A stretch of DNA of 64,000 bases from Amoebophrya sp. A120 (lineage: Eukaryota; Protista; Dinoflagellata). The notes below the pieces were generated by a model that saw only the letters and a list, made by a program, of their open reading frames with translations, had not been told where the DNA came from and ran no database searches. Numbering within the stretch: the stretch's first letter is position 1; every line of letters starts with the position of its first letter. This document shows, one piece after another, positions 7,807 to 62,996 of the stretch. The stretch is taken from assembly GCA_905178155.1 (NCBI GenBank), contig CAJINV010000010.1:3616587-3680586 (forward strand), read 5' to 3'. Made by a program: the position numbers and the translations under genes.

Positions 7807-9474
7807 ATGTCTCGTCGTTCTCGTTCGTTCTCGAAGAAGATTATAGCGGGAGCTGCCGCTCTGGCCATATTAACAGGCGCCTCGAACAGTCACGCGAAAC
7901 CGGCAGTCAAAAGAGATGAAGTAGAATCTCCGGGACCACAACATGCCGGGGAGATCACGACGAGCAAGTTTCTGCCGATCGTAACGGATCCCACCGGGGC
8001 AACGAAGTTGATTGTCGAACAGGACTTCACCTACCCGCTGAAGCAGATGCATGAGCTGATGAAGAAAACTTCGGACGCTCTTTTTTCCTTTGACTTCATT
8101 CCCCTGTCCTTCCGTCCCTTGTACCGCTCGGAACTGAACAACTTGTCGTTGTCCACGACGACCGCGGACGGCCCGCAGTGCACCGCGGACGACTTGGCGA
8201 TTTGGTCGAAGGGCACGGGCAAGACGAACTTCAAGAGCTACATGACCACGTGCGGGAAGCAGTGCTGGGGAGCGGAGGCTTGCGTGGCCACCTGCGTGGA
8301 CAAGGAGGAGCACTACTCGCATATCAAAATGAAAAATCCCCCCTCCCCACATCAAAACGAAATTTCTTATGCTGGATTTGCGTACACAAATCAGATTTGT
8401 CTTGCAGTAGAGGACTGCAGGCCCATATCGTGCCAATGTAGAGAGGTTCTGGCCTAGGCACTTAGCATGAGGAACGTCTATGCTATAGGCGCAACAGCAT
8501 TACAAACCGCCTGCAGTATGGGGCAAAGCCTAGGCCGTTGCTTCTTGCAAGACAGACAAGATCTCTGGTCACAAATCAGCATCACAAATTCCCTGATTGG
8601 TGTCTTTTCGATATGGGGAGGGGGGTTTTTCCTTACGATATCGCAACCCTGCGCGACCTGCTTCGGGCAGCTGGGACAGTGCTCGCGCGACCACTGCATG
8701 CTCCAGTGCATGAACGGATATGCACTGCAAGTATGTCTATGTCTGGAAAGTTGGAACTTGTAATGCTAGCTTTCCATAATTCCTGGGAGATCTGTGTTGC
8801 ATGACCAACAAATAAGTCGCAACCATTTTTGCGATGCGAAAACGCAGTTTCTCATGCAAACTGCCCGTGAGAAAGCGCTATGGAAACTTGTCATGCTGGG
8901 ATGCTGCATTCGGATGTCTTTCCAGCATCCACATTTTAGCATCACAAGTTTCCAGAGGACCCAGACGTATTTGCGATGCATAACGGAAATACCCCGGCGT
9001 GCGCCGCCTGTGAGCGGAAGTACTGCGTGCAACCGTTCTCGGAATGCACGGGAATATCCTGTGCAAAAGTATCGTACTCGTATTAATTGCAATCATGCAT
9101 TACAAATTTTTTACTTAAGGTACCTCAGCATTACAAATTTTACTTCTCATGCTGAGGAAATTTGTAATGCATTTATACGAGTGCGGTACTTTTGCAATTC
9201 ATAGGGAATCGCGGTCGATGACATCCCGAAGGAAATGTATTTGTTCAGATGTATTTCAAGTTCAGCAAACTTGGATTTCTGTGTGTGTTGATGCACAGAT
9301 AGTTCGTCATGCCGAATAAAGATGAAACAAAAACCCTATCGCAGGTTTCTCCATGACCATCTTTCGTCCAAGACGGGTGGCGAACAGGCAGCCGGTCTTG
9401 GCGCGGAGATGGAGAAGAAAACGGGCCCGAAGGCGACGGACAAGAAAGAACCGGCGACGGAGCAGTGGATCTAG
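7807..9474 (+). CDS. Secreted Cys-rich protein (about 270 aa)
   Basis: Signal-like N-terminus (KKIIAGAAALAILTGASNSHA). Removing 3 introners and a GT-AG intron (9237-9344) gives CGKQCWGAEACVATCVDKEEHYSQPCATCFGQLGQCSRDHCMLQCMNGNTPACAACERKYCVQPFSECTG. Spliced length is 813 nt, in frame. Confidence 0.85.
8322..8640. mobile_element. Introner family A
   Basis: Family A TIR; TSD tcgca; excision restores HYSQPC. Confidence 0.93.
8719..8982. mobile_element. Introner family B
   Basis: TIR of the TAT-N4-TGCAAAWATGTCTGGGTCTGGAA type; TSD acgga. Confidence 0.92.
9055..9203. mobile_element. Introner family C
   Basis: TIR TAT-N4-TGCAAAAGTATCGTACTCGTAT; TSD gggaa. Confidence 0.92.
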
Positions 9475-11031
9475 GAAACGTCGGTCTGCAACGGATTTTG
9501 GGAGGAAACAAAAGTCGAACTGATAGTACTGTCAGTTTTAATTCTCGTGTCCAACTTTGATTGCCTGTAGGGGGGACACATCGAGTTCCCAGCTGATATT
9601 TTTGGTATATCAACGTGTATAGAAAAATCAAGCCGAAGTTTTGCTTTTCACGAGTACGATACGAAGATGCCGTTGGATAGATTCTGACTCCTGCCATTTT
9701 TCACGAGTACTTAATACGGTAATGCACTGAATGGAAGGAGAAGGAACTCCGAAAATGAACCCAGCAAGCACCATACCGCCGTAAAGAGGTTGATTCTTTC
9801 TGAAACTAAGACCCCCTGCTCGACCTTGTGTGAAATGAAACCGTGTACGAAAAGAGACTTGGGTCGCGGAGGTCGAAAAGAAGTGCCGCCTTCTTTGTCT
9901 CACGAGTATTACAGCAAGGGACCTGAAACTGATTCATGTCTTGTATATTTCGCGTTCTACATAGGGAATGCACAAAGTCCTCTCGTCGTCCGCGCTGCTA
10001 CATGCAGTCGGGCGACTGTGTTGTAAGCCGGTTCTTATTTTTCCCTGAGGTTCCATCTTGACAATGGATGGATGAAATACTTAGTGAAGGCTCTATGTTG
10101 TAAAAGCTGAAGTTCTCATTTGTGAACCGGGTGACATTTTCCATTGAGGAGCGAAGCCCTAGGCAATTTGACTCCACCATTTTCGGGAGGTGCAAGTGAT
10201 TAAGTGAATGTTTAGAAAACAGTCGTGATTCAAATGTGAAGTATTATTTTCGGTTGATCTGAATTTGTTTTGGTACGACGGTATCAATTGACTTTAAAGC
10301 GAGCGATTTTTTTTCTACTGCGAGAGCAAGCGATAAGACCACATCAAAAGAAGGTCTAGAGCTGGAAATGCGAGTAGATAAACAGATGAAACCACTACAA
10401 TCATTGTATCGAGTGAAGAAGGCGGAGAAGTCCAGACAGAGTGAGATCAGAGGGATAATATGGGAATATTGAGTTGCATAAGTTTTTCCGATTTTTTTGT
10501 ACATCTACAACGTGCCTTCTAACAGCTCCCCTTTTTTGATCACCACCGCGAGCCCGCATTCCCTCGCGGAGCTGCGGCTCGTTTCTACGAATTTCAATTT
10601 TCGCGCGCGATAAGTTCTTGCGCTTCATTTTTGTGTGATTCAATGTGAATACTTTTGAATAAATTTTCCATCTGTGTAGTTGTTTTCCCCGATATTGTAT
10701 TACTTTTTTGCCTTCCCCGAGCAGGAGGGGAACTACAAACATTCAGCCTGCGACACCGGAGTTCATGATGTGACGAGGTTCGTTCCTGCCGGTTGTGCGT
10801 CCGTACGTAGCGCAGTTGAGACGACCGCAGCGAGCTAGCTGCTTTCGGTGGCGGGAAGCAGTGTTTCAGTATCCGATCGGGCAGTTCCTACCAGCACACG
10901 CCGCATGACAAACCTTCTCTAATGAAGCACTTTACTCCTGCACAAAGTTATAACCCGGACGAGAGGACCAGGACTGAGCAGACGGGAAGGCGAACAGATC
11001 TATTTTCGCGACCACCAGTATCCCGTGGTGC

Positions 11032-12613
11032 ATGAGCCTGCTTCGGTTGTGCGCCGTGTGTTGCGGCGGGGAGAAAGACCAGGCAACTTCGTCAGGCGGA
11101 CCCGTCGTGTTTGGGACGGGCAATAATACTTCTAGCAATGGGACGAACGGTATGAGAGTGCACAACTCCCCCTCCTTCTTATTTCTCATGCAAGATTCCA
11201 AATCCACCCTTTGCCTGTTAGCACTGTTTGCATGACAGATTCCAGAATCCAAAATAGCACTGCAATCCTCTAGAAATTTGTCATGCAGAAGCTGCATCTT
11301 TGCCAGCGCTTGTGTTGCTGTTCATGCAAAACAAGTGAGTGTGAGGGGGAGGGGGAGTGGTGCACTCTCATAAACGGCACATCGACAAGGAATCTCCGGG
11401 CGAGTTTCTCCCCGCAAGCAGAGGGAGAAGCTCTGTCGCCGGCGGAGCAGGTACTTCTAAGGGTTTTGTTTAGTTTGTATTCGTGCAAGAGAAAAAAGAA
11501 TTGCAATGTAAAGTTGTCCATGACAAAGTTGGAAAACTACATCTTCTACCAGATATCCCGTGGTACTGACGACGACCTCGACTTTGGGAGCGACCACGAT
11601 ACAGACAACCCCTTTCACTATGACAACATCAATTCCAGTGGGGGAAAAAGGAGTTCCAGAATATCCTTCGGCCTCGGGAACGTGGTCGAATACGAAATCG
11701 AATCCGAAAATGAAAATGCGGGAAGTCCAGACACCAGTCCGGACAGTGGCGGCCAAAATAGATCGTCGTTTAACAATGGATATCAACTGTAAAAATGTCT
11801 GGGTCTGGAAGATTCTGACACTTGTCACGCACGTTTTGCATGAGCCATGATGTCTGTGATCCATACCCTAGCAATACAGATTTTTTGAGGGCTTCTCGAT
11901 GCCTATTTCGCATGACAAATACCTTCTCAGCGTAGCAAAAATTGCATTCCCTTTGGTACTCATGCAATACAGATTTTTTTGGAATCCAAACGCAGCATCA
12001 CAAGTTGCATTCTTCCACACCCACACACTTTTACATTTGATAATGGAAGTAGCAATTCTTTTGCTCTCGACCCCGCAGAAGACTCCCCGGTTTTGTTGTC
12101 CAGCAACAGCGAGCCTGAGTCAGATGACGGCGCGGATAGGTTGGTGGCGAAGGACTGGGTATTTGTGTATGATCAGGATGATGTTTGTCGTACAAGAACT
12201 GTTTATGTTTTGTTATGTACAACTATGGACACAGTCAACACGGATGGAAGTGCAATGGTTGCGATGCATGCGGTACGGGTTCGGAATACTCGAATTCGCA
12301 AAAGAACGTCGATACGGACTCTTTGGTGCAAAAAATAATTGCACCAAATAAAAATCCTCAGGTCGAAATGCAGAAGCGCGCGATGGCAGAGCGGATGGGC
12401 CGAAATAAGCCGGAGGGGGAACAAGGTCCAGATGGTGAAAAACCAAAAAAGCAAAAACTCCGATTTTTCAAGCGAAGACAGGATTCCATAGTGCTCCCCC
12501 CGGCGCCGGAGAAAGGCTGCTTGAGGAAAAGTAGTGCCTACTCTGCGGATATGGAGTCTCCGGACGGGCTGGCGCAGATGTACGGAATAACCCCCAATTT
12601 AGATTACGTCTGA
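11032..12613 (+). CDS. Hypothetical low-complexity protein (about 260 aa) with an N-terminal Cys cluster and an RVxF-like RISF motif
   Basis: Starts MSLLRLCAVCCGG. Removing 2 introners and GT-AG introns 11451-11552 and 12159-12361 gives a 783-nt open frame ending ...ITPNLDYV*. Confidence 0.7.
11151..11372. mobile_element. Introner family F
   Basis: TIR TATGAGAGTGCACAACTCCCCCTCC; TSD aacgg. Confidence 0.92.
11781..12042. mobile_element. Introner family B
   Basis: Family B TIR; TSD atgga. Confidence 0.92.
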
Positions 12614-14592: not shown

Positions 14593-17500
14593 ATGGCAAA
14601 CTCTTCCCCCGGGCGGTCCGGGGAAAATAATCACAATTCGAAAAACAACTCCGCCTTCCAGCTTGCCATATCAACTGCAAAAATGTCTGGGTCTGGAAGA
14701 TTGCCAGGTTTGTCATGCATATTTTGCATGGCTTATGATGCCTGTAGTGCATGACATAGCAGCACAGATTTTTGGAAGGCTTCCTGATGCCTATTCCGCA
14801 TGACAGATGCCGTCTCCGCGTAGCACAATCTGGGCTCCCCTTGCTGGTCATGCAATGCAGATTTTTTTAGAATCCAAAAACAGCATGACAAGTTGGGATC
14901 CTTCCAGACCCAGACATATCTGCAATGCATATGCCCGGTCGCTCTTCAATAGTACCAGGAACAACACTTCGGGTGGCGGCATGTCCGGATCGAGATCTGG
15001 CTCCCCCCCTCGCGGTATGACAGTGCACAACTCACCCTCCCCGTCATTTGCATAGCATGAACGGCAATACAAGCATAAGCAAGAGTGCCGGTTTTGCATG
15101 ACAAATTTGTACTGGATTGTAGTGCTACTTAGGCTACTAGAACGTGTAATGCAAACAGTGCCAAGAGGCAAAGGGTGAATTGGGTATTTTGCATGACAAA
15201 TGAGGGGGAGGGGGAGTTGTGCACTCTCATACGCGGCCACGGGAACAGCTCGGGAGGGAGTTCTGTTTTCACGCCAGGGAAAAATGACGTGTTCCGCAAC
15301 CAAATCAACTTCGAGAATCAGGAGAACATCATGCAGGCGGGTGCTTCTGGTACCAACCAGCAATTGAACACGATGAACTCTATGGGTGGAATTGCGAACC
15401 AGCAGCAGGGCGGATCATCCTCGAGCAGCAGTTCTTCCGGCGCGGTTTTACCGTCTCACGCGGCAGGTCGAGGAGGTCAAGATAGTGCCAACAACAGCAA
15501 TTCTTCCGCTTTCTACAAGCCGGAGAAGCACCGCGCGGAGAACAAGGAGAGCTTAGTGAAGAAGGAAGTGTCTTTCGCGTTTGCGCTGGTGAAAACCTTC
15601 AACCCGGCGGACGGACACACGATTATGCAATGCAAAAGTATCGCACTCGTAGTAATCACAATCATGCGTTACAAATCTCTATCGCAAGGTAAAACAGCAT
15701 GACAAATCCGACGCGTCATGCAGCTGAGCGAATTTGTAATGCAAGAATTACTACTACTAGTACGATGGTACTTTTGCAATGCATAACGATTGATGAAGAG
15801 CAGTTTGACATCGATCCGTTGCCGTATGACAGTGCGCAATTCCCTCTCCCCCTCATTTGTCATGCAAAATATGCCAACTCCAAATGCTGCCTCGTGGCAC
15901 CGTTTGCGTGACAGATTCTGGAAGTAGCGTAAACAGCACTGTACTACGCGCATGAAGAACTTGTCATGCGCAGGCTCCATGTGCGCTGGTGTCTCTATTG
16001 CTGCTTATGCAATACAAATGAGGGGGAGGGGGAGTTGTACACTGTCATATGCCGCCAGACTCCGCGGAACGGAAGGAGAAGTATTAAATGCAAAAATGTC
16101 TGGGTCTGGAAGATTGGAACTTGTGATGCTACTTTTAGATTCCATAAAAATCTGTATTGCATGACCAGCAAGAGGAGTCTAGTTTGTGCTACGCGGGGAG
16201 GGCGTTTGTCATGCGGAGGAGGCATCAGGAAGCCCCCTCAAAATCTGTGATGCGCGGTCGTGCATTACAGACATCCTGGGTCATGCAAAACATGCATGAC
16301 AAATCTCAGAATCTTCCAGACCCAGATATTTTTACATTTCATAAGAAGGAACGGAAAACAAGAAGAGGCACGGGCGGGTCCGCATTGTATGGGAAAAACA
16401 GGGACATCAACTCTGTCTTCAACCACGAAGACGATGATTCAGATGAGTTCCCCGCGATCTCCGATGCCTTCATGACAAAGGCAAAATCGCCCGTGAAACG
16501 CCTCCCTAGTCGGATCCGGAGGGACAGCATCGGCAACCTCGCGGCCTTTTTCGACCCGATGAGCGAGGAGAGCGAGGACCTTATCAACTGTAAAAATGTC
16601 TGGGTCTGGAAACTTGTGATGCTGGGTGGCGTCTCATGATGAGGCTACAGATGCTGGCTCAGCATGACAAGTTTCTGAGCTCTTAGGTGTTGCCTATTCT
16701 GCATGACAAACTGCGCTTCTGCATCACAGAAAAGCGGAGCTCTTGGGTAATGTGCATGACAGATTTAAGAGTCATGCCAGACAAGCATGACAAACCTTGC
16801 ATTCTTCCAGACCCAGACATTTTTACAGTTGATAGACCTGACGGGGGCCTTGAACCAGGCGAATTTGGAGCTGCAGAACCAACACTTATGGATTGCAAAA
16901 ATGTCTGGGTCTGGAAAGTTGGAACTTGTAATGCTGGCCTTGCATTCCTGTGAAATCTGTATTGCATGACCAAGAACAGTGGTAGCCTCTCATGTCGTAC
17001 AAAAACGTAGTTTCTCATGCGGAGTTCGTATGAGAAGGCGTGCTGCAACCTTGTCATGCTTTCCGGCATAAGGAAGTGACTTCCTTGTGCACATTTTAGC
17101 ATCACAAATTTCCAGACCCAGACATATTTGCATTTGATAACACTTTTCGGGCACTGATGTGTCGAATAACGTGGAAAAAAGGCGCGTTTCGGTCATCAGC
17201 GACAACAGTGACGACGTTTTCGCGGTGGGCGAGGAAGAGGCGAGGAGAAGCAGCGCGGCATCGGGGATGCAGGGTATAGGGAACGAATAGAACTTCTTGT
17301 TTCAACTACCCTTGCGATGTGGTCTCATTTGCATGATGACGTTTTGCAGCTAGCAACTTCCTACTGTGTTTGATGTTCGTGTCTTCTTCACTGAAGACAA
17401 ATAATTTTGAATGAGATAGAGATTCCGATATTGACACAAAACTATCAGGGACTAACGCGAACATTAACCAGCAAGAGCGGAATTCGGACTCTTTGTTCGG

Positions 17501-20500
17501 GGAAAACGAGCCGGACAAAATCGACCACATTCCGGAAGAGCCGGAGAAGGACGAAGACTCGTTTTTCAGCGGGTTAAACACCGAATTGTCCTCTATTCGG
17601 CAGGTCACCGGTACGAACGACTTCAACCAGCCTAACATCACCTTCCAACAGTCGAACTCCTCGCAGCATTCCATGCACAACCGCGCGCGGATCCTGACCC
17701 CGAACTCCCAACTGGGGACCCCGCGGAGCATCGACGGCAGCTCCAAACGACGACGGGTGAACAACCAGGGTAGCATATCGTATGTGAAAACTTGCCCACA
17801 CCATAATCACGATGGGAAATCTGCTAGACAAATCAACCAGCTTTGGTTGCTGCGCATGACAAGTTTGGCTGTGCAGTGTAATCCCGTTGAGCTAGCTCCA
17901 GCAGCATGACAGATCTAGCGAATCGTGCTGATTCGAGCGTCACAAATTCCGAAGCACAGCTAGAGAATGCGTCTCATGTATGACGCTCCGCATGAGAAAC
18001 ATTTTGACCATGCAGATTTGCATGACAGCTATCGGGTGGGGACGTTTCTACATAGGATACAGCAGGGACATCACGGGGCAGGTGAAGTCTATGGCGGATT
18101 TGATCGAGGACATGGATCCGGGACAGAAAAATCTGAGCGACCACTTCGACGCTGTGGCGGTATCTGAGTGTTTTATGTGCCGCTCGACGAGCACCTGATG
18201 TGAGTTATCATTCATCTAAATGCAGCACAAACAAGCTGCTCGTGTTCGTCCGCAGGCATAGGTCGCATGTTGTCATGTATGTTTTTTTGATTTTGTGTTT
18301 TTACTTTATCAAATCTAAGGAAAGTCGTTTTTTATCAGGTTCAGCAATCCGAGGAGGAGATCCGGCGTAAGTCTGTGATCAAGACCGAGGGCCGGGACCT
18401 GCTCGACGACGTTTCTTCCGTCGGTGACGACGAGGAGTGCGACACGCCTTCTTTCGGGAATTTTAAGTCTCCGAACAATAACCAGGAAAATAATAACCAG
18501 AAAACAAATCGGCACTCCTCCCGGTCCCGCGGGCGGACGTTCTCCTCAATTCCGGACGATTTGAAAAACCGAAACAGCAACATGCTCGCGGGAAATGGCT
18601 TGAAATTGGATTCAGAGAAAGCCCGGGATTCGCAATTTTCCAGTTCGGGTTGGGACAGCTCGGATATGAATGTTAACCGGCGGTCCTCTGTCTACTCGCC
18701 GAATCAGGCGGATCCTTTCAACTTCCAACCCGCGCCGGCACACTCGGTATGCATTGCAAATATGTCTGGGTCTGGAAGGTTGAAACTTGTGATGCGCATT
18801 TCAGAACACAGAAAAATCTCTCATGTATAGGCAGCCAAAGTTGCTCACTTTCTGTCACCAAAGTCAGGGATTTGTCATGCGGATTCGGCATTGCGAACGC
18901 TTCTCGAAACCTGTGATGCTAGAGCTTCCATGCCAGACCTTCTGTGTCATGCAAAAGCAGCATGATTCTTCCAGACCCAGACATTTTTGCATTTGATACT
19001 CGGTGTACGGAAACAATAACTCACCCGCGGCCCGATCGGACCGCGGCGAGTTGTCGCAATCGGACCGGAATTATGAATTGCAAATATAATTTCTGGGCCT
19101 GGAAGGATGCAAGGTTTGTCATGCTTGTCTGGCATGACTGAAAAGTTTGTGATGCGTGTCCAAGAAGAAACCCTTTTGCTTGTCATGCAAGATCGCAGTT
19201 TCTCATGCGGAAAGTGCACCACTAAGCAACGCAGATATAATTTCTCCTGCTGTGCTGTGCATTACAGAGCATTCGCTATTCGAAAACCAGCATGAGAAGT
19301 TTCCAGACCCAGGTTTTTTGTATTGCATAGGAATAACCGGCATAATACTTCGCGTCACAGCAACAGTCTGAACAACAGCAAACTGGACATCGACCTCCCG
19401 CCCGAGAAAAACAGTATCAAAGTCAGCAGAGAAGTGAAAAACGCGCTGGCAAACCGGCCGATCACCATCATTCCGCCAGACCAGTTGGCTGCGGCGCGGA
19501 ACAGTATGGACTCGAATTTGTCTGGTAGGAATAATAATGCTGTGCAGCCGTTGATGAATGTAGAGAACAACAACCGCAGGGCGTCGCGCGCAAGCAACGA
19601 GGAGTGGGACCCGCGGAGACGGTCCTATCAAAAGGAAAAATCCCCCCTCCCCATATCGAAAACGAAATTTGTGATGCTGTATTTGAGTACACAAATCAGG
19701 TTTGTATTGCAGAGAGGCATTGCGGCCAGATCCCCAGGCTAGGTAGGGGCGCATGGTTCTAGTTGTGCAGCATGGCAAACGGCTCCCCTTTAGGCCTCAC
19801 AGCATGACAAATCGCTTCCATAATGGGGCGGAAGTTTCTGCCCTTGTCTTCTTGCAAGACAAATGCGATCTGTGACCTCAAATCAGCAACACAAATTTCC
19901 GGAAACGTACCTGTTCGATATGGGGAGGGGGGATTTTTCTCTTTGATAGGTCCGCTTCTTTCATGATTGGCGACGTTTCCGCTTTGAATCAGACAGGAAC
20001 GAATAGTAACAATCGAGAAAACTCCGGCTCTCGGATGAACAACAGCCAGCTGAATCGGTCCAACCTTCTCTCTCCTCGGGCGAACGAGCAGATTGGTGGC
20101 GCCACTTCCAGTCGAAGCCGGGTGGGAATGTGGAAGTCGCCGATCCAGCAGAACCCGAATCGGTCGCTGTGGGGGATTAGTTTTGAAGAATTTAAGGAGA
20201 GGATCGGGGTGTCCGATGCGGACTTAGAGAAACACATTATTGACGCGATCGAGCGGTATAAAATGCCATTAGACGAATATGGGAGTGTCAGGATCGAAAT
20301 CAACAAAATCGAAAAACTTGTGATGCATAAAATCGATACCAGTTGGAGCCTCAGTTTCCAAGCGGCGCATGACAAATTTTAGGAGCACCAAAATCCAGTC
20401 TGTCATGCTGTTTGGGCAAAGGAGACTGCTCTTGTGATGCTACTCTGGCAGCAGATCGCCTTCCCCTAAACAGGCTTGCAATCGGGTTCATTTGCTTGCT

Positions 20501-23500
20501 CCCCAACACAGGCCATGCGTGCTCTACATTTTATGCATTACAAATTTTTATTCGATTTTGTCGATTTCGATCCTGACACTCCCATAACGAAATCGCGAAA
20601 GGAGCAGCGGTTGGGGGTGCTGGTGGATCTGCAGGAGGGGGAGGAGCAGCAGCTTCAAGTGCAACAGCAGGAGCAAGTAACTCATCATCATCTTCTTCTT
20701 CATCCGCAGCAGCAGCAGCGGCGTCCGAGCTAACGTCTCTCCACCTGGACGCAAAGAAACGCGCGGTGGGATTGTTGCCGGCTTACCCGCCCCTGTCGGT
20801 GCTGCAACAGCTGAACGATTGGCAGATCAAATCGGAGGATTTGCCCGTGGTGCGGAAGTTGCTAGCGGCGAATAATTCTGCTACCGCGAGTGGTGTGGAG
20901 AAGGAGCAACATGAGCAGTTTGTGGAGCAACTACGGCAAATCGCTTTTCTCGCGATAGAAAAAGTATCCACTGCAAATATGTCTGGGTCTAGAAGAGTGC
21001 GAGATTTGTCATGCTAGTCTGGCATGAATCTGAGCTCTGTATTGCGTGGCCAGGAACATCTCCTCTTGCCTGTCATGCGAAAGCGCAGTTTCTCATGCGG
21101 ACTGCACAACACAGAGCAACCAGAAAACCTGTTATGCTTGGCGGCGCATCACAGTGCGCTTGTTATTCACCGACAGGCATCACAAGTTCCAAGACCCAGA
21201 CACATTTGCAATGCATAAAAAGGGGTGATGGACAATGCGAAGCAGCACTACGACGAGAAGTTGCGGGTTTTTTACGAAAAGGAATTTTCGAGTTTGGAAA
21301 AAGAGATCGGGGAAAAGAAGGAGAAGGTGGAGAAACTAGCTGTGCATAAGGAAAAACTCGCGAAATTATTGCAGCAGAAGAACAACATTGAACAGACTTC
21401 GAAAGCGGAAAAGGCGCGGAACGATAGACGGAGGGAAGAAGTGAAAAATCAGAAAGAGTACGGGAAACAGGTATAGAATTTTCGAAGGATTTTTGATGTC
21501 GCATGGAAAATAGATGATCTGCATGATAAAAGCTTTTTCTCAGCTCTTATACGTGTTTTACTCTCGTTCTTCGTGTCGTGGATCGGATGAAATTGCTTCA
21601 TTTTTACTCTTGTGAAAATCAGCTCGAAATCCGGATCGCGGCGGCCCGTGCGCAAGTGAACCAGAGGCGACAAAACGTGAATCACCAGCTCGAACAGCAC
21701 TCGCTCATGACCGGAGCTGCTAGTGGGAACAACAACACAACTAATCTGAACCTCACGTCCCAAACCACGCTCACCAACGTCCTCCACCCGAATGCGCCGC
21801 AGCCAACCGAACAGGACCTGAAAGCGGCAAAAAAGGCGATTCAGATCCTACAAAAGGAGAATGAATCGCTGAAAAAACAGAACGAGCGGAAAAAACTCTC
21901 CCGCGACCTTTCGAAGTGGAAGAAGGGGTTAGGCAAGGATGTCGGGAACAAAAATCCGGACAAACTCTTTCTGTACCGAGACAGCGGCTTGGGGCACGAG
22001 CTGACGTTTACCGAAGGGTCGCTGCGCTGGAGTTTCACGCCGAGGGTGTCCGAGTTCTGCCCGTTGCGGTTGAACAACGACCATCCAAACGCGAAAAATC
22101 TGGCGAAAGACATGTACAATGCCTGTTGGGTGAAGTCGCGCGGGACTATTTTAGCGGCGGCGGTTTCGCCCAGAAAAAACGCCCCGAGTTCGCCTACTTC
22201 CGGCACAACTACCGATGGGCAATCCTGGCTGGTGATCTTCGGGCACATATCAAAATGAAAAATCGACCCTCCCCATAGCAAAAAAGGGATTTGTGTAGCA
22301 TGATTTGTGATCACAAAAGACGTTGTCATGCTAGAAGGGAAGAGATGGACCGACTGTAGTACTGGCTGGCGTTGGAAAACCTTGCATCTTCAACATGACA
22401 GGACGCAACTGGAAGCGGAGAACAGCATGACAGATTACCTGCAAGCGAGGGGGGCGCAGCTGCGTCTCTTGGCCTTCTAGCAAAACAACTCGACTTGTGT
22501 ATGCAAATACAGCATCACAAATTTACGTGTCGATATGGGGAAGGGGCATTTTTCCTCTCAATAGCACAGACTCGCCCAGATCGACCGGTTTTTGAAAGAC
22601 CTGGGTGGGATATTACAATGAAAAATGCCCCCACCCCAGCACTTGGCAGCATTTGTATTGCAAACCTTTCCAATGGAAACATTTCCCGTCTTGCATATAT
22701 CAGCATCACAAATGTGCCACTCTGAATAGCTCAAATCTGTGTTGTAAAGGAGCCCAAGAGCAGGCAGATGTGTTGTGCAGCAGATGCCTTGCGTGCCTAG
22801 ATTCTGCATCAGAGAGGCTCATAGTCCTTTCATGCAAGACAAAAAGCTTTCATTTGGAAACTTTGCATGAGAAACTTTTGCACGGGTTTGGGGGCAGTTT
22901 TCACTGTAATTCGGGATTACGGGCGTCACGTTTGAGGACCACGAGTCGTTTCTGATTTTCCACGTCATGGTGACCCCCAGCATCGAAGTCAACCCCTACG
23001 GCTTTTCTGAGGTTTACCCTACCCCCGGGAGCACGAAGCGCGCGTACTGGATGTTTGATTTGCGGTTGCCGCGGTCGTATCAACTGCAAAAATAAATGCC
23101 TGGGTCTGGAAGAGTGTAAACTTGTCATGCAGGTTTTACATAACCCATGAGGTCCGGCATGCGGGATCTAGCATGACAGACTCTACTGCGAGGTCTCTGT
23201 CATGCCTCGACTGCATGAGAAACTCGAAACTCCCTCCCAACTTGGTCGAAAGTGGACAGCTTTCGGCACTCATGCAACACAAATTTTTGCATGATTCCGA
23301 TTTAGCATGACAAGTTGCAATCTTCCAGACCCAGACCTATTTGCAGTCCATAAGTCGGAACTCATAAGGTTCGCCGCACACATCCACGACGTGGACTGGA
23401 TCTCGAAGTTGCAGTGCACCGCAAAACCGACGCCGGGGGTGGATCAGAAGATGGTGCAGACGGCGATTGACGATTGTCTGGTATAGAACAAGTTAGAGCT

Positions 23501-24234
23501 GATAGTACAACTAGTAGTGTGTTTGTTCTGCGTTTTTTCATCTTCATGAATATGCAGGACTGGAGTTTGTCATGCGGATACTATCATTCTGTTTCTGCGA
23601 AGATAAACTTTTTAAATTCTATCAGGACGAGATCAAGTCGGACACGTCTGCCGCCGCCCGCGCCAGCCGGTCCGCCCCGGGGGCGATTCGCAGCTTTTTG
23701 CAGAGCATCTACAAGCAGGTAAAGGAGAAAATGCTGCGGGACTTGAAACACTCGCACCCACAAGAACACCAGGCGTACCTGCGTCACAAAAATTCCTTCT
23801 TCGGCCAGCCCGTCGCTGGGATGCAGCTGCAGGAGCACCCGCAGGCGGGTGCTACTTCGCTGACCAGCATGGCCACGAACGTTGGGTATAACGGCGGCGG
23901 AAGTAGTGGCGTGGGGTCGATGAACTACAGTAGGGGTGGCATGACCGGGACGTCGAGCCATGCTGGGAATTTCGGTACGGGCGATTTTTACGCACAAAGC
24001 TCTCGGTCGCACATGGGAGGTTCCATGCAGGGTAGAGGAGTAAGCGGCACAAGTTCATCTTTTTCCCGAGCCGGACATCATCATCCAAATGCATCCTCCT
24101 CCCGTGCCCACCCGTATTCCCGCCCAGATCGATCGCAGATCTCGTCGCCGGAGAGGTCGGTGTTGCAGATGCTGATGCCAACCAGTGCGGAGAAGCAAGA
24201 GAGGGAACGACATCAGCAGCCATTGGTGCATTAG
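14593..24234 (+). CDS. Probable divergent KNL1/Spc105-like kinetochore scaffold (about 1568 aa)
   Basis: Removing 16 introners and 4 GT-AG introns (17274-17448, 18160-18338, 21471-21622, 23481-23625) gives a 4707-nt open frame. It has SLVK-KEVSFA...VKTF (SILK/RVSF-like), a disordered middle with EDLTG/RDITG motifs, ISFEEFKERIGV (Spc7-domain-like), a coiled coil and a globular C-terminal region. The gene model is solid; the family call is inference. Confidence 0.6.
14669..14931. mobile_element. Introner family B
   Basis: Family B TIR; TSD tgcca/tgccc. Confidence 0.9.
15016..15231. mobile_element. Introner family F
   Basis: Family F TIR; TSD cgcgg. Confidence 0.92.
15624..15785. mobile_element. 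Introner family C
   Basis: Family C TIR; TSD acgat. Confidence 0.92.
15825..16049. mobile_element. Introner family F
   Basis: Family F TIR; TSD tgccg. Confidence 0.92.
16082..16343. mobile_element. Introner family B
   Basis: Family B TIR; TSD agaag. Confidence 0.92.
16582..16834. mobile_element. Introner family B
   Basis: Perfect 26-bp TIR TATCAACTGTAAAAATGTCTGGGTCT; TSD gacct. Confidence 0.93.
16887..17139. mobile_element. Introner family B
   Basis: Family B TIR; TSD acact (no G, so no GT or AG boundary is possible). Confidence 0.93.
17776..18059. mobile_element. Introner family D
   Basis: Family D TIR; TSD tagca/cagca. Confidence 0.88.
18748..18998. mobile_element. Introner family B
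   Basis: Family B TIR; TSD ctcgg. Confidence 0.92.
19072..19329. mobile_element. Introner family B (variant TIR)
   Basis: B-like TIR; TSD ggaat. Confidence 0.9.
19626..19948. mobile_element. Introner family A
   Basis: Family A TIR; TSD ggtcc. Confidence 0.93.
20278..20586. mobile_element. Introner family G
   Basis: Long TIR TATGGGAGTGTCAGGATCGAAATC-ACAAAATCGAA; TSD acgaa. Confidence 0.93.
20965..21217. mobile_element. Introner family B
   Basis: Family B TIR; TSD aaaag. Confidence 0.92.
22248..22563. mobile_element. Introner family A
   Basis: Family A TIR; TSD gcaca. Confidence 0.92.
22611..22911. mobile_element. Introner family H
   Basis: TIR TATTACAATGAAAAATGCCCCCA; right end is ATT; TSD tggga/cggga. 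Confidence 0.87.
23078..23352. mobile_element. Introner family B
   Basis: Family B TIR; TSD ggtcg/agtcg. Confidence 0.9.
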
Positions 24235-28300: not shown

Positions 28301-28423
28301 TCATTGCAAATCTGCATGACAGCGCTGGCGTGGGGACGTTTTTACTCAGGATACCATTTGGTGCGGGAAATGTGCTTGCTACTTCCCGCGCGTTTGGAAA
28401 AGGTGCTGCATGCGCCGGGGTGA
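25339..28423 (+). CDS. KIFBP: KIF-binding protein (kinesin-binding protein, TPR-like; about 846 aa)
   Basis: Family motifs SKYKARE, LGKNYYFCEEVPAGE, NQLGMVW, YTLTQFYLAQAY, YCAETLCRQL, DWARNCVGLSDYF and LDGYCTDHVKLLQEIS. The C-terminal LVREMCLLLPARL appears only after removing introner 28075-28353. GT-AG introns 26044-26205 and 27031-27128. An alternative start is 25384. Confidence 0.9.
28075..28353. mobile_element. Introner family D (in KIFBP)
   Basis: TIR TATCCTGAGTAAAAAC-TCCCCAC; TSD ccatt; excision restores the conserved KIFBP C-terminus. Confidence 0.95.

Positions 28424-35835: not shown

Positions 35836-35836
<1 letters not shown>

Positions 35837-35874
<38 letters not shown>
35837..35874. 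repeat. (CTAT)n microsatellite, about 9 copies
   Basis: Read directly from the sequence. Confidence 0.95.
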
Positions 35875-36638
35875 CTCACTGGGTGTCTCTTGAGTTTCTC
35901 TCCAAAAAACTGTTGTACCGCCGCACCAACGTGTGCGAGCATACCAAACGGTAATATTCTGATCTGATTGTCCTCGGTATGTCTGTGTGGTTGTCCTTGT
36001 TCATGAATTCGTTGGACGATAGCGGAGCTACAACCGACAACTGATCTTTATGTTGATCCACCGTAGACGTAGAGTGATGAACGACGGCGCGCACTCTTGC
36101 GATGGGCAAAAGCGCATCAAAGTCAGTAGTAATCTTTTCAGCCTGGTGGGCGTCCGAACTCCTTGGGCTCTTCGTTCTGAAAATTAATGCGTCACTGGTC
36201 TTCGCAATCAAGGAGCCTCAAGCACATGAAGTTTCTGAAACGCGAGCGCTGCAGTTTCTTGTGCATTCGATTTGTTTTTCGTGCTAAATTACGTTCAAGT
36301 GTCGTGCGCATACGCCAGTCGTTTTCAATTTTCGTCCTGTCGTTCCCACTCGTCCTTCTTTCTTCAAGCTTGCTGCTAGATGACTATCGTTGTCCCGTTG
36401 ACATTACCTTTAATTTTAGTTTTACTTGTTGGTCGGCAGAAACATAGCAATCGGAAAATATCGCAGGAATTGTGGTGAAAGTGAAACAGTTACACTTACA
36501 ACTCACTATCGGAGTAGCGGCCTCCTAGTACTACACCCAGATTGTAATTTTTATTGTTCTTTATTCTTTGTTCCTCTTCCTTTGCAGGTCCAGATCCAGA
36601 GTATTGTTTTTAGTTAGTAGCACACCGCCGCAAGCATC

Positions 36639-53200: not shown

Positions 53201-56200
53201 CACAAGTTGCACCCTTCCAGACTCAGACATTTTTGCATTTGATACCGGAAGAAGAGCGACAACAAATCGGTCAAGCTGGTAAAAACGCCGAGCGGGAATT
53301 TTATCGTGGATGAGTCGGGGCTGGATCAGGGAGATACAGAAGGACACCGCGCATCGGGAGTTAATACAGGCAATAAACCTGCTACACGAAAATCCGGGGA
53401 TCCAGACGAGGGCACAGCACTCCCCCACGACGGGAAACACCATAAACATCCGAAAGGTAGTACCCCGCAACAGCAGCACCTAGTCGGCGGGCAACATCAA
53501 GCGGGTAGTACTCCTATGAAGGGCGCGGGAAAGCATATCCAGGGCTCTTTGCCGCCTCTAGCCCATGGAGGTTCTTCGCAGCTCTCCAACCCACAAAGCC
53601 TACTGCAGGGGATGCTTCATGGTGCCCAGGGAGCGGAAGTTGTTGCGGTCGCTGCCCCAGCAGGGTTGGCGCAACCGTCGAATGAAATTTACCATGGGCA
53701 ATCGCCCTCGCAAAACGCGTTTCTGATGGGCACGGGTGCGGCGCCGGGGCCGGTGAGCAAATTCGGCAGAGCCATGTCGAGGGAACTCAAGTACGGCTTG
53801 GACCACGCGAAGGACATACCGAAGATATCAAGAGGAAAAATCCCCCCTCCCCATATCGAACAGGAAATTTGTGATGCTGGATTTGCTTCCCCAAATCGGC
53901 CTGTGTTCCTAGAAGGCCAAGGGACGCACTTGCGGCCTTAATTGCAGGCAATTTGTCATGCTGTTTCCCACTTCCAGTTGCCTCCTGTCATGCTGAAGAT
54001 GCAAGGCCTTCTTACGCCAGCAAGCACTACAGTCTGCGTCTTTTCCCTTCTAGCATGACAACATCTTTTGTGGTCACAAATCAGCATCACAAATTTCCTG
54101 TTTGAATATGGGGAGGGGGGATTTTTCCTTTCGATAGAAGAGCCAAGAAATAAACGAGGACGATTATGCGAAAAAGATCGCGTTGAACCGCCAGTATCAA
54201 ATGTAAAAATGTCTGGGTCTGGAAGAATCCAACTTGTCATGCTGATTTTGGATTCTAAAAAAATCTGTATTGCATGAGCAGCAAAGAGAGTCCGAATTTT
54301 GCAGCACGGAAAGAGCATTTGCCATGCGGAATAGGCATCAGGAAGCCCCCTAAAAATCTGTGATGCTAGGGGATGCATCACAGACTTGAGGAGTCATGCA
54401 AAATATGCATGACAAACCCGGCAATCTTCCAGACCCAGACATTTTTACATTTGATAGCCAGAAGTACTTCGCAAATCTCACGCACGACTCACGGTTTAAT
54501 TTAGAAGAGAACCAAACAGCAGAAGAAAAAATCGCGATTTTAAACGCGTACTACGCCGAAACGGACCTCGGTTCCGGCGTCTCCGACACGAGCGCAGAAC
54601 AGTCAGAGGACGCTCTAACTGCACCAGCGAACAAGCAGGGGCATAAGAAGAAAAAAGCGATGAAAAATATCGCAGCTACAGGACCGGGAAGCAAGAGAAA
54701 GAAGATTTTCAAGGACGTGGGGGAAATTGTAACCGCTTTGGAGGTGAAGTGGCGGGATCTGGTGGATTTGGAAAAGCGGAAATTGCTCGCGTACATGATC
54801 AACGACCCGACACTTCCCGGGACTCTGGAAATCCCCGCGGAATTATATCGTAAGGAAAGATCCCCCCTCCTCATATTGAAATGGTACGTTCTCCAAAATT
54901 TGCGTTGCTGATTTGAGGTCACAAATCACATCTGTCTTGCAAGAAGAGAAGGGCAGAAACTTCCGCCCCATTATGAAGCCGGTTTGTCATGCTGTTGGGC
55001 CTACAGGGCAGCCGTTTGCCATGCTGAACAACTAGACCCATACGCCCCGACCTACCCTGGGGATCAGGCCGCAATGCCTCCCTGCAATACAAAGCTGATT
55101 TGTGTACACAAATCCAGCATCAGAAATTCTGTTTTGATATGGGGAGGGGGGATTTTTCCTCACAATAAATTATTCGACCGGCTGGTCGAAGTACCGTTCG
55201 CCTTGCCGACGCTCGGAGAGGTGCGGCATGTGGTCAAGGAGTGGAAAAGGGTATTAAGTTTATATTCCAAAATCCGCATCACAAGTTTGCTACGCATGAC
55301 ACTGAAAATCTATCTGTCATGCGGCGTTCCTAAGGGAAAACACAGCTAGAAATCCATTGTCGTGCATCTGTAGCATGACACACACTTCTGCGATCCATTT
55401 TCTGCATCACAAGTTCACAATCACAGCGAAATCATAAATCAATCTGAAACTACCCCACTACAGATCGGTGTGAAGAAGGCCGAGAAGCGGGAATCGACCG
55501 GGAGTCCGGAGACGTATTTTCATTTGAAGCAGAAAAAAACCCACTCCGACAATTCCGGTGACGGATCAGACTCCTCCGATTCCGATGTGTCCGACTCAGA
55601 TTATTCCGAAGAGGACCCGGAAAACGCAACCCCAAAATCCCACTACAAGAACCGCATAAAATCGAAGTCTTTGCAGTTTAAGTACAAAAGAGCGGTGATC
55701 GACTCCGGATTCACGCCGGTCTTCGAGTCGGATTTGCGGATTGCTTTGTCCTTCGGAATATGAACTGCAAATATGTCAGGGTCTGGAAAAGTGGAATCTG
55801 TATTGTGTGTCTTGCACTCCTGTAAAATCTGTATTGCATGACCGACAAAGGCGCGAACTTGTTGTCATGCAAAAACGCAGTTTCTCATGCGCACTGCACA
55901 TGAGGAAGCGTCCTGAAAATTTGTCATGCTTGGCTGCACTCAGGAGTATGCTCAGTCATCGCCACTTAGCATCACAAGCTTCCAGACCCAGACATATTTG
56001 CAATTCATACGGAAAAATCACGGACTTCATCGTGAAGCCGGAAAATGTGATCGACGTGTCTTTACTAAAATGCTACGGCATTGATCTAAACTCCGATCGC
56101 CTCGGCGCGGTGATTGTGTGGGCGCGGCGAAGGCGGAAGGAGCTGCGGGACGTGGAAAGAGGATTGTTAGACGCGGAGTTGGTGGATGGGTTCGATTTGG

Positions 56201-56855
56201 TGAACCAAGTGGAACAACTCTACCCAACGGAACCGGATCAGCAGGAGATGGTGTGGAAAAAGTGCGTTTTGGAAAAAACGCTCGGGCAGCAGGAAACCGC
56301 GGACATTTTGATCCACATGTCGCCGTTTTCGGAGGAGTATAGCAAGGAACTCGCGCATAAACTCTGTGTGGAGGAAAACCCGGCGAATTATGAGTTGGAA
56401 AAGCGAGTGAAAGCGCAGGTGATCCACAAATCGCAACAAGCATTATCGGCGAACAAGACGACGTTTGAATTAGATAACAAGCACGAGCACCACCACACGT
56501 TCGTCGACCCGTTAGCGCAGGACACACTAGCGCCGCCAAACGAGGAAGAGGCCGAGAAATTGCACGCTTTAGGGTTCGCACCCCGGGAAAATCTGAAGCG
56601 CATGAAGGGGTGGACTCACGCGCTGTACTTGCTATGCATTGCAAAAGTATCGTACTAGTAGAAACTGCATGACAAATTTGCTCAAGAACAAAAATGCAAT
56701 TTGTAATGCTGTTTTCCCTTAGAAAGTAGATCTGTCATGCATGACTGCAATTAGTACGAGTACGATGCTTTTGCACTTGATACTTGCAAGCGAAAATCGA
56801 CTGGATCACGCAGCAAAGGAGCAAAAAACTCGGAACGCAGCTGTCGCAGGGATAG
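50233..56855 (+). CDS. Large single-pass membrane protein of unknown function (about 1335 aa)
   Basis: Removing 9 introners and GT-AG intron 55251-55463 gives a 4008-nt open frame. The TM helix QIIAIIAAASFLLLVLALCCYLKCC lies on a small exon (52894-52977) between two introners. Stop TAG at 56853-56855. Confidence 0.75.
51698..51950. mobile_element. Introner family B
   Basis: Family B TIR; TSD cggag. Confidence 0.92.
52302..52517. mobile_element. Introner family F
   Basis: Family F TIR; TSD gatga. Confidence 0.9.
52569..52893. mobile_element. Introner family A
   Basis: Family A TIR; TSD ccggg. Confidence 0.92.
52978..53244. mobile_element. Introner family B
   Basis: Family B TIR; TSD ccgga. 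Confidence 0.92.
53826..54136. mobile_element. Introner family A
   Basis: Family A TIR; TSD gaaga; reverse-orientation sibling of 44052-44363. Confidence 0.92.
54195..54456. mobile_element. Introner family B
   Basis: Perfect TIR TATCAAATGTAAAAATGTCTGGGTCTGGAAGA; TSD gccag. Confidence 0.93.
54846..55167. mobile_element. Introner family A
   Basis: Family A TIR; TSD aatta; reverse-orientation sibling of 19626-19948. Confidence 0.92.
55759..56009. mobile_element. Introner family B
   Basis: Family B TIR; TSD cggaa. Confidence 0.92.
56633..56782. mobile_element. Introner family C
   Basis: Family C TIR; TSD cttgc. Confidence 0.92.
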
Positions 56856-61100: not shown

Positions 61101-62996
61101 TTCGAAAATTTGTCATGCGAAGCAGCGTGATCGTTTGGCAGCTCATGGTCATTCTGCATGGCAAATCATGTAAGAACAGTTGAGAACGTAAAAACATTTG
61201 AGAACGCCATAGCGGCAGCGTACCAGCCGAAGCAAGCGAGCTCTTTGATTTATCAGGAAGAAACGGGGTACTACGTCCCGAAGCCGGAGAAGCCGCCCAA
61301 ATACCCAGCTGAATACGGGAAAAAGCGGAAAACGGATTTTGTACCCGACATTGCGGTAGCGATTCACTTTCTCAACGGGAAAAAGAAAATCACCTGCGAA
61401 TGCGCACGGCCGACGGAGGAGACAATAAGGTTTTTATCCTGAGTAAAAACGTCCCCACACCAGAGTCAAGATGGGAGATCGGCTAGACAAATCAACCAGC
61501 TGTGTTTGTTTCGCATGACAAGTTTCGTCCCCTCGTAGCGTTGTCCTGTTTAGGTAGTTCAGCAGCATCACAGATCTAGACTATCATCTTGATTCTAGCA
61601 TCACAAATTCCACGACGCGACTAGAAAACGCTTTTCATGGGGCTCCGCATGAGTAACATTTTGAGCTTGCGGATTGGCATGACAACTCTGGGGTGGGGAC
61701 GTTTCTGCTCAGGATAGTTTTTGGTGGATGTCGACACAGTCACCGGCCTGGGGGAAAAAAAATTGTTGCTCGCGAAGGCCGTCTCGCCGGACAGGATCGT
61801 CTCTCCCGCGTGCTGCAGCTTCAAGGGAAAACCCGCGCCAGAGGTCTGTGGACAATTTTGTAATGCTGTTCTTGGACGACGAACATCAAGTCGATCATTA
61901 GTACGATTTGTATTCGCTATTCAATGAGATCATGATAAACAACAAAATCAAAAACGTCAATCAGGACCTCCTCTGGCCATTGCTGCACTCCCAGGATTTC
62001 TGCTCTCGCTACCAGCCGCAGCAATACAAGCAACTTTCCGGCATCACAGATTCCGAACTCTACACAAGATCCTGGTGGACGACAGAGTTTTGCCTCGGTA
62101 TGTATTGCAAATATGTGTCTGGAAGGTTGCAACTTGTAATGCTGTCTTTGGATTCTAAAAACATCTGTGATGCTGATGTTGCATGAACAGCAAGAGAAGT
62201 TGATTTTGTGCTACGCGGAGACGGCATTTGTCATGCAGTATAGGCATCGGGATTCAGGAAGCCGAAGCCCTGAAAAAGTCTGTGATGCTAGAGCATGCAT
62301 CCACAGACATCATGGGTCATGCAAAATGTGCATGACAAGTCTGGCACTCATTTTCCAGACCCTTACATATTTGCAATGCATACTCGGGGCAATCACCCAG
62401 TTCCACGTGACAAAGTCCGGGCAGGCGCACGGGTCCAGGATAGGCTTGGGTTACTTGAAGCCGGCGGATTTGATATGCAATGCAAAAGTATCGTACTGCA
62501 GTTATGCATCACAAATCCAGATGTTACGCATTACAATTTCCATTTCTGGTGCTGAGGAAATTTGTATTGCAATCACTACTAGCACGATGCTTTGGCAGTT
62601 CACATTTGACGATGACAAACAACGCGCTGTTGCATATCAGAAGGAAAAATCCCCCCTCCCCATATCGAAACGGAGATCTGTGATGCAGATTTGTGGTCAC
62701 AAATCAGCTTTGCCGTGCTAGAAGGGAAAAGATGCGGACTGTAGTGCCGATTGGCGTGGGAAAGCCTTGCATCTTCAGCATGACAGGAGGCAGCTGGAAG
62801 GGGGAAACAGCATGACAAATCGCCTGCAAAGAAGGCCACAACTGCGGCTCTTGGCCTTCTAGCATGACAAGTCGATTTGTGTACTGAAATACAGCATCAC
62901 AAATTGCGTTTTCGATATGGGGAGGGGGGATTTTTCCTGTAGATATTGCAAACTGTGGAGGGCGGGACGTGCTCGAGTCAATTTCAAGTTTTCACG
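58132..62996 (+). CDS. OS-9/ERLEC1(XTP3-B)-like ER lectin with MRH (PRKCSH) domain(s); 3' end unresolved
   Basis: After removing 10 introners and GT-AG intron 61844-61964 the frame reads FC...RSWWTTEFCLGAITQFH...IGLG...LQTVEGGTC, matching the MRH signature WWxYEFC..QFH..LG..GTxC. A weaker first repeat may be present (C...EYDLCFERG). A GTAT donor lies at 62997; the next exon was not identified. Confidence 0.65.
58464..58785. mobile_element. Introner family A
   Basis: Family A TIR; TSD cggtc. Confidence 0.92.
58846..59112. mobile_element. Introner family B
   Basis: Family B TIR; TSD acaaa/acaag. Confidence 0.9.
59300..59585. mobile_element. Introner family D
   Basis: Family D TIR; TSD gagaa/gaaaa; sibling of 28075-28353. 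Confidence 0.9.
59692..59997. mobile_element. Introner family H
   Basis: Family H TIR; TSD gcaag. Confidence 0.92.
60086..60252. mobile_element. Introner family C
   Basis: Family C TIR; TSD agatc/aaatc. Confidence 0.88.
60884..61211. mobile_element. Introner family J (single copy here, starts TAA)
   Basis: TIR TAAGGAGTTCTCAAATGTT...TTCTCAACTGTT / AACAGTTGAGAA...AACATTTGAGAACGCCATA; TSD acggc/gcggc. Confidence 0.85.
61435..61716. mobile_element. Introner family D
   Basis: Family D TIR; TSD gtttt; opposite orientation to 5734-6018 and 39987-40284. Confidence 0.92.
62099..62382. mobile_element. Introner family B
   Basis: B-type TIR; TSD ctcgg; excision restores WWTTEFCLGAITQFH. Confidence 0.92.
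62474..62604. mobile_element. Introner family C (right end ACA)
   Basis: Family C TIR; TSD tttga. Confidence 0.87.
62635..62945. mobile_element. Introner family A
   Basis: Family A TIR; TSD ttgca. Confidence 0.92.

Follow-up and report, generated by a model that had tools for sequence, protein, structure and literature searches.

The DNA analysed is a 64-kb stretch (hereafter the window) of contig CAJINV010000010.1 from the dinoflagellate Amoebophrya sp. A120. We annotated 63 introners, intron-like elements bounded by terminal inverted repeats (TIRs), and 16 GT-AG introns in it (Table 1); excision of each introner together with one copy of its flanking duplication, and of 15 of the GT-AG introns, brings back long reading frames in nine genes. 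Nearly all introns of either kind carry a short motif, GCAT[GCT]ACAA in its strict form, which lies on either strand, recurs at a preferred distance and is almost absent from the rest of the window.

Introners were sought by their TAT...ATA ends and flanking duplication, which yielded 59 candidates, one weak candidate being dropped and five added by hand. Splicing was followed in RNA-like contigs (runs X1–X4 of a single study, taken as RNA by guess), which are spliced. Between 4800 and 12500 these contigs give 14 joints, comprising 11 of 11 introners, two predicted GT-AG introns and the intron at 12159–12361. Three joints (two GT-AG introns and one introner) are seen in the gene for KIF-binding protein (KBP), an exon of which has one match, an Amoebophrya sp. 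A25 protein with 52% identity. For the 1,570 amino acid gene at 14.6–24.2 kb, the modelled exons add up to 1311 and 332 nt, the same totals as in RNA-like contig X1 record 2. Beyond 29 kb the introns were placed by frame restoration only; among the genes there is one whose product has two UBA domains and which we take to be RAD23-like. Wherever the RNA-like contigs reach, introner removal is exact, the element and one 5-bp duplication leaving the RNA. One element start was set at 5453 by these contigs; class counts use this position, while the 168-element set and the matrix described below were built with 5458. The gene starting at 36640 shifts frame at 44899–45164 (near 45150) with no intron visible, and a one-base assembly error there is possible.

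The motif was modelled by expectation maximization on the 63 introners alone (about 450 sites), and the introner counts are thus circular while those of the other classes are not. In full it reads W-GCA-(T/A)-(G/C/T)-ACA-RRY, i.e. W-GCA-W-B-ACA-RRY, with a near-palindromic consensus. The strict form occurs 163 times (89 on the + strand, 74 on the - strand), as against 1–4 times in ten dinucleotide shuffles of 4830–64000. An earlier reading of this DNA from its letters alone (the sequence-only reading) had placed the motif in virtually every element and in both orientations, and the strict form is indeed present in 61 of the 63 introners (151 matches in 16,652 nt, 9.07 per kb). That most GT-AG introns contain it is true once variants are admitted: the strict form was found in 7 of 16 (9 matches in 2,332 nt, 3.86 per kb; shuffle mean 0.15 matches), the introner-trained matrix at a threshold of at least 8 bits in 15 of 16, compared with 2.6 introns in shuffles (24 matches; shuffle mean 2.85, maximum 9 in 1000), and at least 12 bits in 8 of 16 (12 matches; shuffle mean 0.43). 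All 14 intron positions checked from that reading fall in GT-AG introns. The rarity it described elsewhere was also confirmed, with one strict match in 23,361 nt of coding sequence (0.04 per kb) and one in 16,055 nt of untranslated region (UTR) and intergenic DNA (0.06 per kb); the final strict match, at 4897, lies within an apparently cut-off element end beside a satellite. Matrix matches in coding and non-coding DNA do not exceed those of the corresponding shuffles, and the RNA-covered UTRs (3,994 nt, 44% GC) hold four of at least 8 bits. The four exceptions that had been named lie in exon or UTR sequence, that at 10903 being retained in RNA-like contigs. Two strong motifs, 20 nt apart, lie at 62020–62052 inside a predicted exon. 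CATG, proposed as the core and as a target of base modification, was rejected, position 4 being A in 22% of sites; the conserved part is GCA..ACA. The apicomplexan TGCATGCA motif, a perfect palindrome which is bound by ApiAP2 proteins and linked to promoters, has similar letters and belongs to a related lineage, whereas the present motif is rare upstream of genes and in intergenic DNA and has the core just given. Its reverse complement recalls the animal Sox-Oct composite site, presumably by coincidence.

The enrichment is repeated in independent contigs. A three-motif pattern scan of 3 of 64 metagenome parts returned 27 loci from JACKZZ01 contigs, which carry the same introner families at about 80–95% identity; 113 elements were called, eight doubtful or duplicate calls were dropped, and the remaining 105 bring the total to 168 with those of the window. 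A gene finder without a motif term, which found all 11 known GT-AG introns of its training region but over-calls, predicted 82 GT-AG introns in JACKZZ01, 17 of which match elements. The other 65, unfiltered, contain 18 matches of at least 12 bits compared with 1.26 by shuffle. After filtering for GTA start, GC of at most 0.43, flanks and gene length, 9 of 12 predicted introns have a match compared with 2.2 by shuffle; this filter was set after the motif table had been seen, so that the count without it is more reliable.

Copies of the motif on the same strand peak at a distance of 31–33 nt (221 pairs, with 8–11 clusters of elements at each distance). Among 28 cluster representatives, 29 of 107 same-strand pairs fall at this distance (null 3.3, 0/5000; the clusters are partly interdependent), and in the GT-AG introns 7 of 10 do so (null 0.45, 0/200,000). 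Such pairs are found in 59 of 63 introners and 5 of 16 GT-AG introns, in none of 89 exon pieces and in none of 10 non-coding stretches. A module with copies 30–34 nt apart is present in 147 of the 168 elements, the family consensus sequences hold one to three modules, and the spacer has no strong consensus. As 31–33 bp corresponds to three turns of B-DNA, we infer that the two copies would lie on the same face of the helix. No periodicity of element lengths at 10.5 was found.

The elements have more in common than the motif. At both ends of the 168 elements the family-weighted logo is TAT(C/G)-N6-AAAAA (T 0.98, A 0.95, T 0.96; A 0.68–0.89 at positions 11–15), and the target duplication is 5 bp, perfect in 135 of 168 elements (detection mostly tolerated one mismatch), where hAT elements usually make one of 8 bp. 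The elements fall largely (151 of 168) into 12 clusters of 2–60 copies; across families the first inward motif stands 28–30 or 38–40 nt from the element end, and the terminal repeat itself includes a variant of the motif at 13% of family-weighted ends. Together the shared end signature, the 5-bp duplication and the set motif distance fit one TIR transposase type, with subterminal sites, as the putative source of all families. The sequence-only reading had described families with unrelated TIRs and had argued from them that a transposase-binding site would not explain the motif; since the families share end signature and duplication length, that argument falls, and one transposase type could serve all of them.

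It is therefore to be asked how far such a site alone would go. On that account the motif would be purely the subterminal transposase site of one TIR superfamily, GT-AG introns would be converted elements or trapped older pieces, the host would play no part, and introners would be removed by way of their hairpins; we regard this as possible, though rather unlikely. Beyond the common ends and the set motif distance, it draws on the GTAT start (that is, G plus an element end) of 11 of the 16 GT-AG introns, and on the hAT element Herves, in the covered passages on which (PMC3143072) short subterminal repeats, near both ends and apart from the terminal repeat, are bound cooperatively; Ac, Tol2 and Tag1 are further hAT elements named in that paper. 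The present motif, unlike that of Herves as described there, occurs throughout the element as fixed pairs, across families that cannot be aligned, and in host GT-AG introns as well. That the modules fill the whole element, and not its ends alone, speaks against a pure transposase site. A further point against it may be that no transposase family was found in the 79 open reading frames (ORFs) scanned here, and that Farhat (PMC7789003) reported none in A120.

The GT-AG introns bear on the same question. The intron at 55251–55463 is plainly a trimmed introner: it scores 110 bits against its element family (at most 32 for motif-keeping shuffles), and relative to the family consensus its interior is identical at 60 of 77 positions, its terminal repeats at 19 of 54. 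At least one GT-AG intron thus obtained its motifs from an element, and the proposed direction, in which elements acquire a host code, is not supported. A GT-AG intron predicted in JACKZZ01 (locus L125, reverse strand, 2539–2657) begins with G followed by an apparent family terminal repeat and has no motif match; it is a possible further element turned ordinary intron, and like 55251 it favours the transposase-site account. The other 15 GT-AG introns of the window score at most 10.5 bits against profile hidden Markov models (HMMs) of the families, two of them exceeding all 50 of their own shuffles (10.3 and 5.7 bits). No end-to-end complementarity was found in these 15 (P=0.92), and candidate remnants of terminal repeats in GT-AG introns were rejected, the look-alike junction repeats being the usual AG|G consensus. 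The 15 introns nevertheless contain 4.2 strong matches per kb and four pairs, and 14 of them have a match, so that the motif is not confined to elements and their recognisable remnants.

In simulations, element fragments reach the same match density at 10–15% substitution and the same pair rate below 10%, levels at which 91–95% of fragments still score above 11 bits. At 35–40% substitution 83–95% fall under 11 bits, with 0.1–0.6 strong matches per kb and no pairs. HMMs built from JACKZZ01 copies alone had a recall of 84–90%. Because the introns keep their motif load without family homology, a combination outside the decay simulation, neutral decay of the sampled families, as modelled, does not fit them. 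This counts against a pure transposase site: 15 of 16 GT-AG introns lack family homology and terminal pairing, and this group keeps near-consensus motifs and four exact pairs. A second argument comes from age. In the covered passages of PMC7789003, 19.4% of A120 introns are at positions shared with A25, 98.6% of these are canonical, and introner families are strain-specific; arithmetic on these figures would imply that about half of the A120 canonical introns predate the strain-specific families. Yet in two conserved genes, those for KBP and the RAD23-like protein, all seven GT-AG introns have a match, A25 sharing being known as a genome-wide share and not per intron.

Conservation within families was compared with that of adjacent sequence. 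In this comparison, which the sequence-only reading had proposed, the core is kept better than its surroundings, five-fold within families, with mismatches to the family consensus at 139 of 2600 core positions (5.3%) and 2208 of 9713 interior positions (22.7%) in clusters 1–7, and at 15% and 35%, respectively, in the mixed cluster 0. For the 13 closest copy pairs the divergence is 1.9% in the core and 10.3% in the interior. Core conservation is alike in elements with perfect and with mismatched duplications (0.110 and 0.099), and introner 6473–6666, whose duplication has decayed to 1 matching base of 5, has a 32-nt motif pair (6521/6553). The claim that a host factor keeps the motif stands in part. 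TIR-less GT-AG introns are truly enriched in the motif, on both strands alike and again in the independent contigs, and neutral decay of the sampled families hardly yields this, so that some host component probably maintains it; that selection on transposition alone may account for the conserved core is a point in favour of the transposase-site account.

Mismatched duplications also indicate where the introners are cut. Four such elements show that the cut follows base 1, 2 or 3 at the earliest, and one of them narrows it to base 3 or 4. A cut after base 4 would give N|TAT, the same register as the G|TAT start of the GT-AG introns noted above; this register rests on one informative case, in which the + strand of the gene was deduced from the frame. 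N-T starts dominate Table S4 of Farhat (PMC7789003, covered in part), in agreement with the N|TAT register. At their 3' ends 6 of the 16 GT-AG introns have TATCAG and 7 have TA at -6/-5, which is the place of an element's terminal TA if four duplication bases remain in the intron.

Several features indicate the form in which the motif is read. In the GT-AG introns, all of + strand genes, 13 matches are on the + and 11 on the - strand, so that there is no sense-strand specificity. The distance to the splice sites is not fixed (11–152 nt from the 5' end and 10–176 nt from the 3' end, among the window introns, a small sample). One family with motifs nearly all on one strand is inserted in both orientations within + strand genes and is removed from both (5734, all antisense; 28075, all sense). 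In predicted RNA none of the 24 GT-AG intron motifs pairs with another motif, compared with 40% of 355 in the introners with their long foldbacks, and the suggestion that the motif acts on paired RNA is thus not supported. With no strand bias, no set distance, no pairing partner and removal both ways, the motif is most simply regarded as a putative double-stranded-DNA site. Excision of introns from the DNA was considered and rejected, since contigs of run X5 continue without interruption across three GT-AG introns and extend into elements, although it may occur in a minority of molecules.

Our preferred reading, tentative and held at somewhat less than even confidence, is that the paired motif is a site for a protein on double-stranded DNA and that the host keeps it as an intron mark. 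The site would have originated as a subterminal binding site in a single type of TIR transposon, from which all families stem. Elements that were converted or trimmed, like the one at 55251, would then have brought it into GT-AG introns, where selection would retain it after loss of the remaining element sequence. A protein would read the motif on the duplex in either strand, with two sites facing one side of the helix. Most speculatively, the DNA-bound factor would help the spliceosome to pick the segment during transcription, while the exact ends would be set in ordinary introns by G|TAT and AG, in introners by N|TAT and the terminal hairpin. That intron definition in A120 lies partly at the DNA level, a protein on paired sites three helical turns apart guiding a spliceosome without U1, is a possibility which we rate as doubtful; the protein would perhaps be a domesticated transposase DNA-binding domain.

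A number of observations weigh against a host intron mark. One GT-AG intron, at 55251, plainly derives from an element, and extinct or unsampled families would slip past the HMMs. The core divergence of 1.9% in close pairs is not clearly below the neutral expectation of about 2–5% (duplication mismatches, 2.3% per site), and core conservation may stem wholly from selection on transposition. No pair is present in 11 of the 16 GT-AG introns; the RNA-supported intron at 17274 carries no motif and yet is spliced; and the 16-bit motif at 10903 stays in the RNA-like contigs. Terminal hairpins could define the introners without the motif. A helical rhythm beyond the 31–33-nt peak is suggestive only, as the wider 10.5-bp phasing (P=0.003 against a module-free null) shifts in its best period, from 10.6 to 11.2, when the peak is left out.

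An alternative which we consider improbable is that a host protein binds the pair for chromatin work in gene bodies, such as the placement of nucleosomes or nucleoproteins or the damping of elements, and that the sites lie in introns because they entered and are tolerated there, without directing removal. It would share with an intron mark the strand symmetry, spacing and retention data, and the variable distance to the splice sites and the splicing of an intron without motif suit it; transcribed UTRs and intergenic DNA, however, could equally hold such sites and hold almost none. An RNA intronic splicing enhancer, read in both orientations by one near-palindrome protein or by two proteins, would explain the confinement to spliced-out sequence, the near-palindromic consensus and the predicted pairing in introners, but is very unlikely, since the sense and antisense forms share little when single-stranded and occur with equal frequency, a single orientation is present in many introns, the GT-AG intron motifs are not predicted to pair with one another, and a rigid 31–33-nt spacing over free sequence would be unexpected for flexible single-stranded RNA.

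The introners themselves have been described. According to the covered passages of Farhat (PMC7789003), those of A120 have inverted repeats in which an initial TAT is separated by some seven variable bases from a stretch of A, with short direct repeats; the non-canonical introns, about 240 nt long, are exactly removed from RNA; and in A25 and A120 more than 60% of introns lack GT-AG ends, U1 snRNA was not detected and the removal mechanism is stated to be open. The elements of the window agree with that description in their TAT, variable bases and A run, their direct repeats and their exact removal; they differ from what its text describes in the internal motif, the 31–33-nt pair, the sharing with canonical introns and the consistent 5-bp duplication. 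Most of the A120 rows covered (21 of 58) in Gozashti (PMC12130899) are likewise "TIR DNA, superfamily unknown" of about 106–340 bp; diverse origins are given there and the supplements searched (12 of 14) contain no motif strings, in contrast to the single end signature and internal module found here. The MITE-derived introns (from miniature inverted-repeat transposable elements) of Fritillaria borealis and the non-conventional introns of euglenids (PMC11282704) are similarly transposon-derived, with terminal repeats, non-GT-AG ends and exact removal, but their described signals are at the intron ends, and the passages covered mention no motif that lies inside the intron on either strand and is also present in canonical introns. 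The shared internal motif was not found in the Amoebophrya and introner literature searched, for which figures and 2 of the 14 supplements of PMC12130899 could bear on novelty; CATGACA occurs together with Amoebophrya in one paper, as a primer. The introners are already published, but these searches turned up neither the shared motif nor its fixed pairing nor its occurrence in ordinary introns, all of which are apparently new.

Searches for the motif and the elements elsewhere were negative. The terminal-repeat pattern had no viral matches and one chance prokaryotic match, Rfam gave no matches, and 83 viral loci with motif arrays, as well as the non-JACKZZ loci from 3 of 64 metagenome collection parts, gave nothing resembling the elements; the 14 loci inspected, which were dense or matched, proved to be tandem repeats or chance. 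A larger element of 1,104 nt (JACKZZ01 locus L134, 505–1608) shares the end signature and has a duplication of 5 bp; its motif modules are placed towards one end, and its ORFs have no Pfam match. Raw RNA run X8 contributed 173 reads, of which about 160 match the element end 23268–23336 at 90–95% identity and none an exon, a hint of an organism with divergent genes sharing that introner family.

All 63 intact introners sit in coding sequence (4971–63003); the 16 kb of UTR and intergenic DNA contain none, and no introner is nested in a GT-AG intron. Internal exons shorter than 25 nt are absent (7.2 expected, P=0.0003), whereas the class of 25–100 nt comprises 27 of 70 (17.7 expected, P=0.005). 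Window positions 1–4750 are occupied by a 123-bp satellite in 38.6 copies, 100% identical, beside which (about 4860–4969) lies what seems to be the truncated right end of an introner, containing a single motif. The intergenic region 32466–36123 contains three diverged GC-rich repeats (near 33208, 34355 and 35332) as well as two copies, at 32466 and 33534, of a 300-bp repeat; the motif was not found in this region, and three ORFs gave no Pfam match.

Table 1. Introns, introners and the exceptional motif of the window, with motif content or splicing evidence.
Feature	Coordinates	Strand	Observation
GT-AG intron	9237..9344	+	one weak antisense motif, 8.7 bits; RNA-like joint
GT-AG intron	11451..11552	+	sense motif pair, 33 nt; RNA-like joint
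GT-AG intron	12159..12361	+	one antisense motif, 9.9 bits; known solely from RNA-like contigs
GT-AG intron	17274..17448	+	sole negative, no motif of at least 6 bits
GT-AG intron	18160..18338	+	one sense motif, 11.4 bits
GT-AG intron	21471..21622	+	one sense motif, 9.9 bits
GT-AG intron	23481..23625	+	one antisense motif, 17.0 bits
GT-AG intron, KBP gene	26044..26205	+	one antisense motif, 10.4 bits
GT-AG intron, KBP gene	27031..27128	+	three motifs (+, -, +); same-strand pair, 23 nt
GT-AG intron, RAD23-like gene	29459..29563	+	sense pair, 32 nt
GT-AG intron, RAD23-like gene	29681..29843	+	sense pair, 33 nt
GT-AG intron, RAD23-like gene	30319..30450	+	one antisense motif, 16.1 bits
GT-AG intron, RAD23-like gene	31140..31290	+	one weak antisense motif, 8.8 bits
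GT-AG intron, RAD23-like gene	31845..31967	+	antisense pair, 32 nt
GT-AG intron with introner interior (about 160 nt), without terminal repeats	55251..55463	+	four motifs, one pair of 31 nt
GT-AG intron	61844..61964	+	one antisense motif, 15.2 bits
Strong single motif in 5' UTR, true exception	10902..10914	+	16 bits; retained in RNA-like contigs
Six introners, gene 1	5036-5290, 5453-5664, 5734-6018, 6121-6408, 6473-6666, 6784-6990		all six joints in RNA-like contigs X3/X4
Three introners	8322-8640, 8719-8982, 9055-9203		joints in RNA-like contigs
Two introners	11151-11372, 11781-12042		joints in RNA-like contigs
Sixteen introners, one 1,570-aa gene	14669-14931, 15016-15231, 15624-15785, 15825-16049, 16082-16343, 16582-16834, 16887-17139, 17776-18059, 18748-18998, 19072-19329, 19626-19948, 20278-20586, 20965-21217, 22248-22563, 22611-22911, 23078-23352		exon totals match X1
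Introner, KBP gene	28075-28353		removed with one 5-bp duplication, RNA-like contig joint
Three introners, RAD23-like gene	29909-30163, 30584-30897, 31422-31697		frame restored
Thirteen introners	37982-38287, 38341-38606, 39096-39365, 39987-40284, 41376-41632, 41764-41982, 42192-42498, 42565-42831, 44052-44363, 44458-44710, 45425-45683, 45799-46103, 46180-46486		frame restored
Nine introners	51698-51950, 52302-52517, 52569-52893, 52978-53244, 53826-54136, 54195-54456, 54846-55167, 55759-56009, 56633-56782		1,351-aa frame restored
Ten introners	58464-58785, 58846-59112, 59300-59585, 59692-59997, 60086-60252, 60884-61211, 61435-61716, 62099-62382, 62474-62604, 62635-62945		681-aa frame restored

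A cis-element with defined geometry, shared by both intron classes and nearly absent elsewhere, makes the open question of splicing in this organism testable. If the motif were only a transposase site, many A120 families would be one transposon system, from which many "ordinary" introns would descend. If the host uses the motif, the choice of introns would rest on a strand-blind mark in the DNA, of which no described case was found. Should introns indeed be defined partly at the DNA level by a protein on the paired sites, introners could land either way round at any sequence, and old GT-AG introns would have been drawn into the same code.

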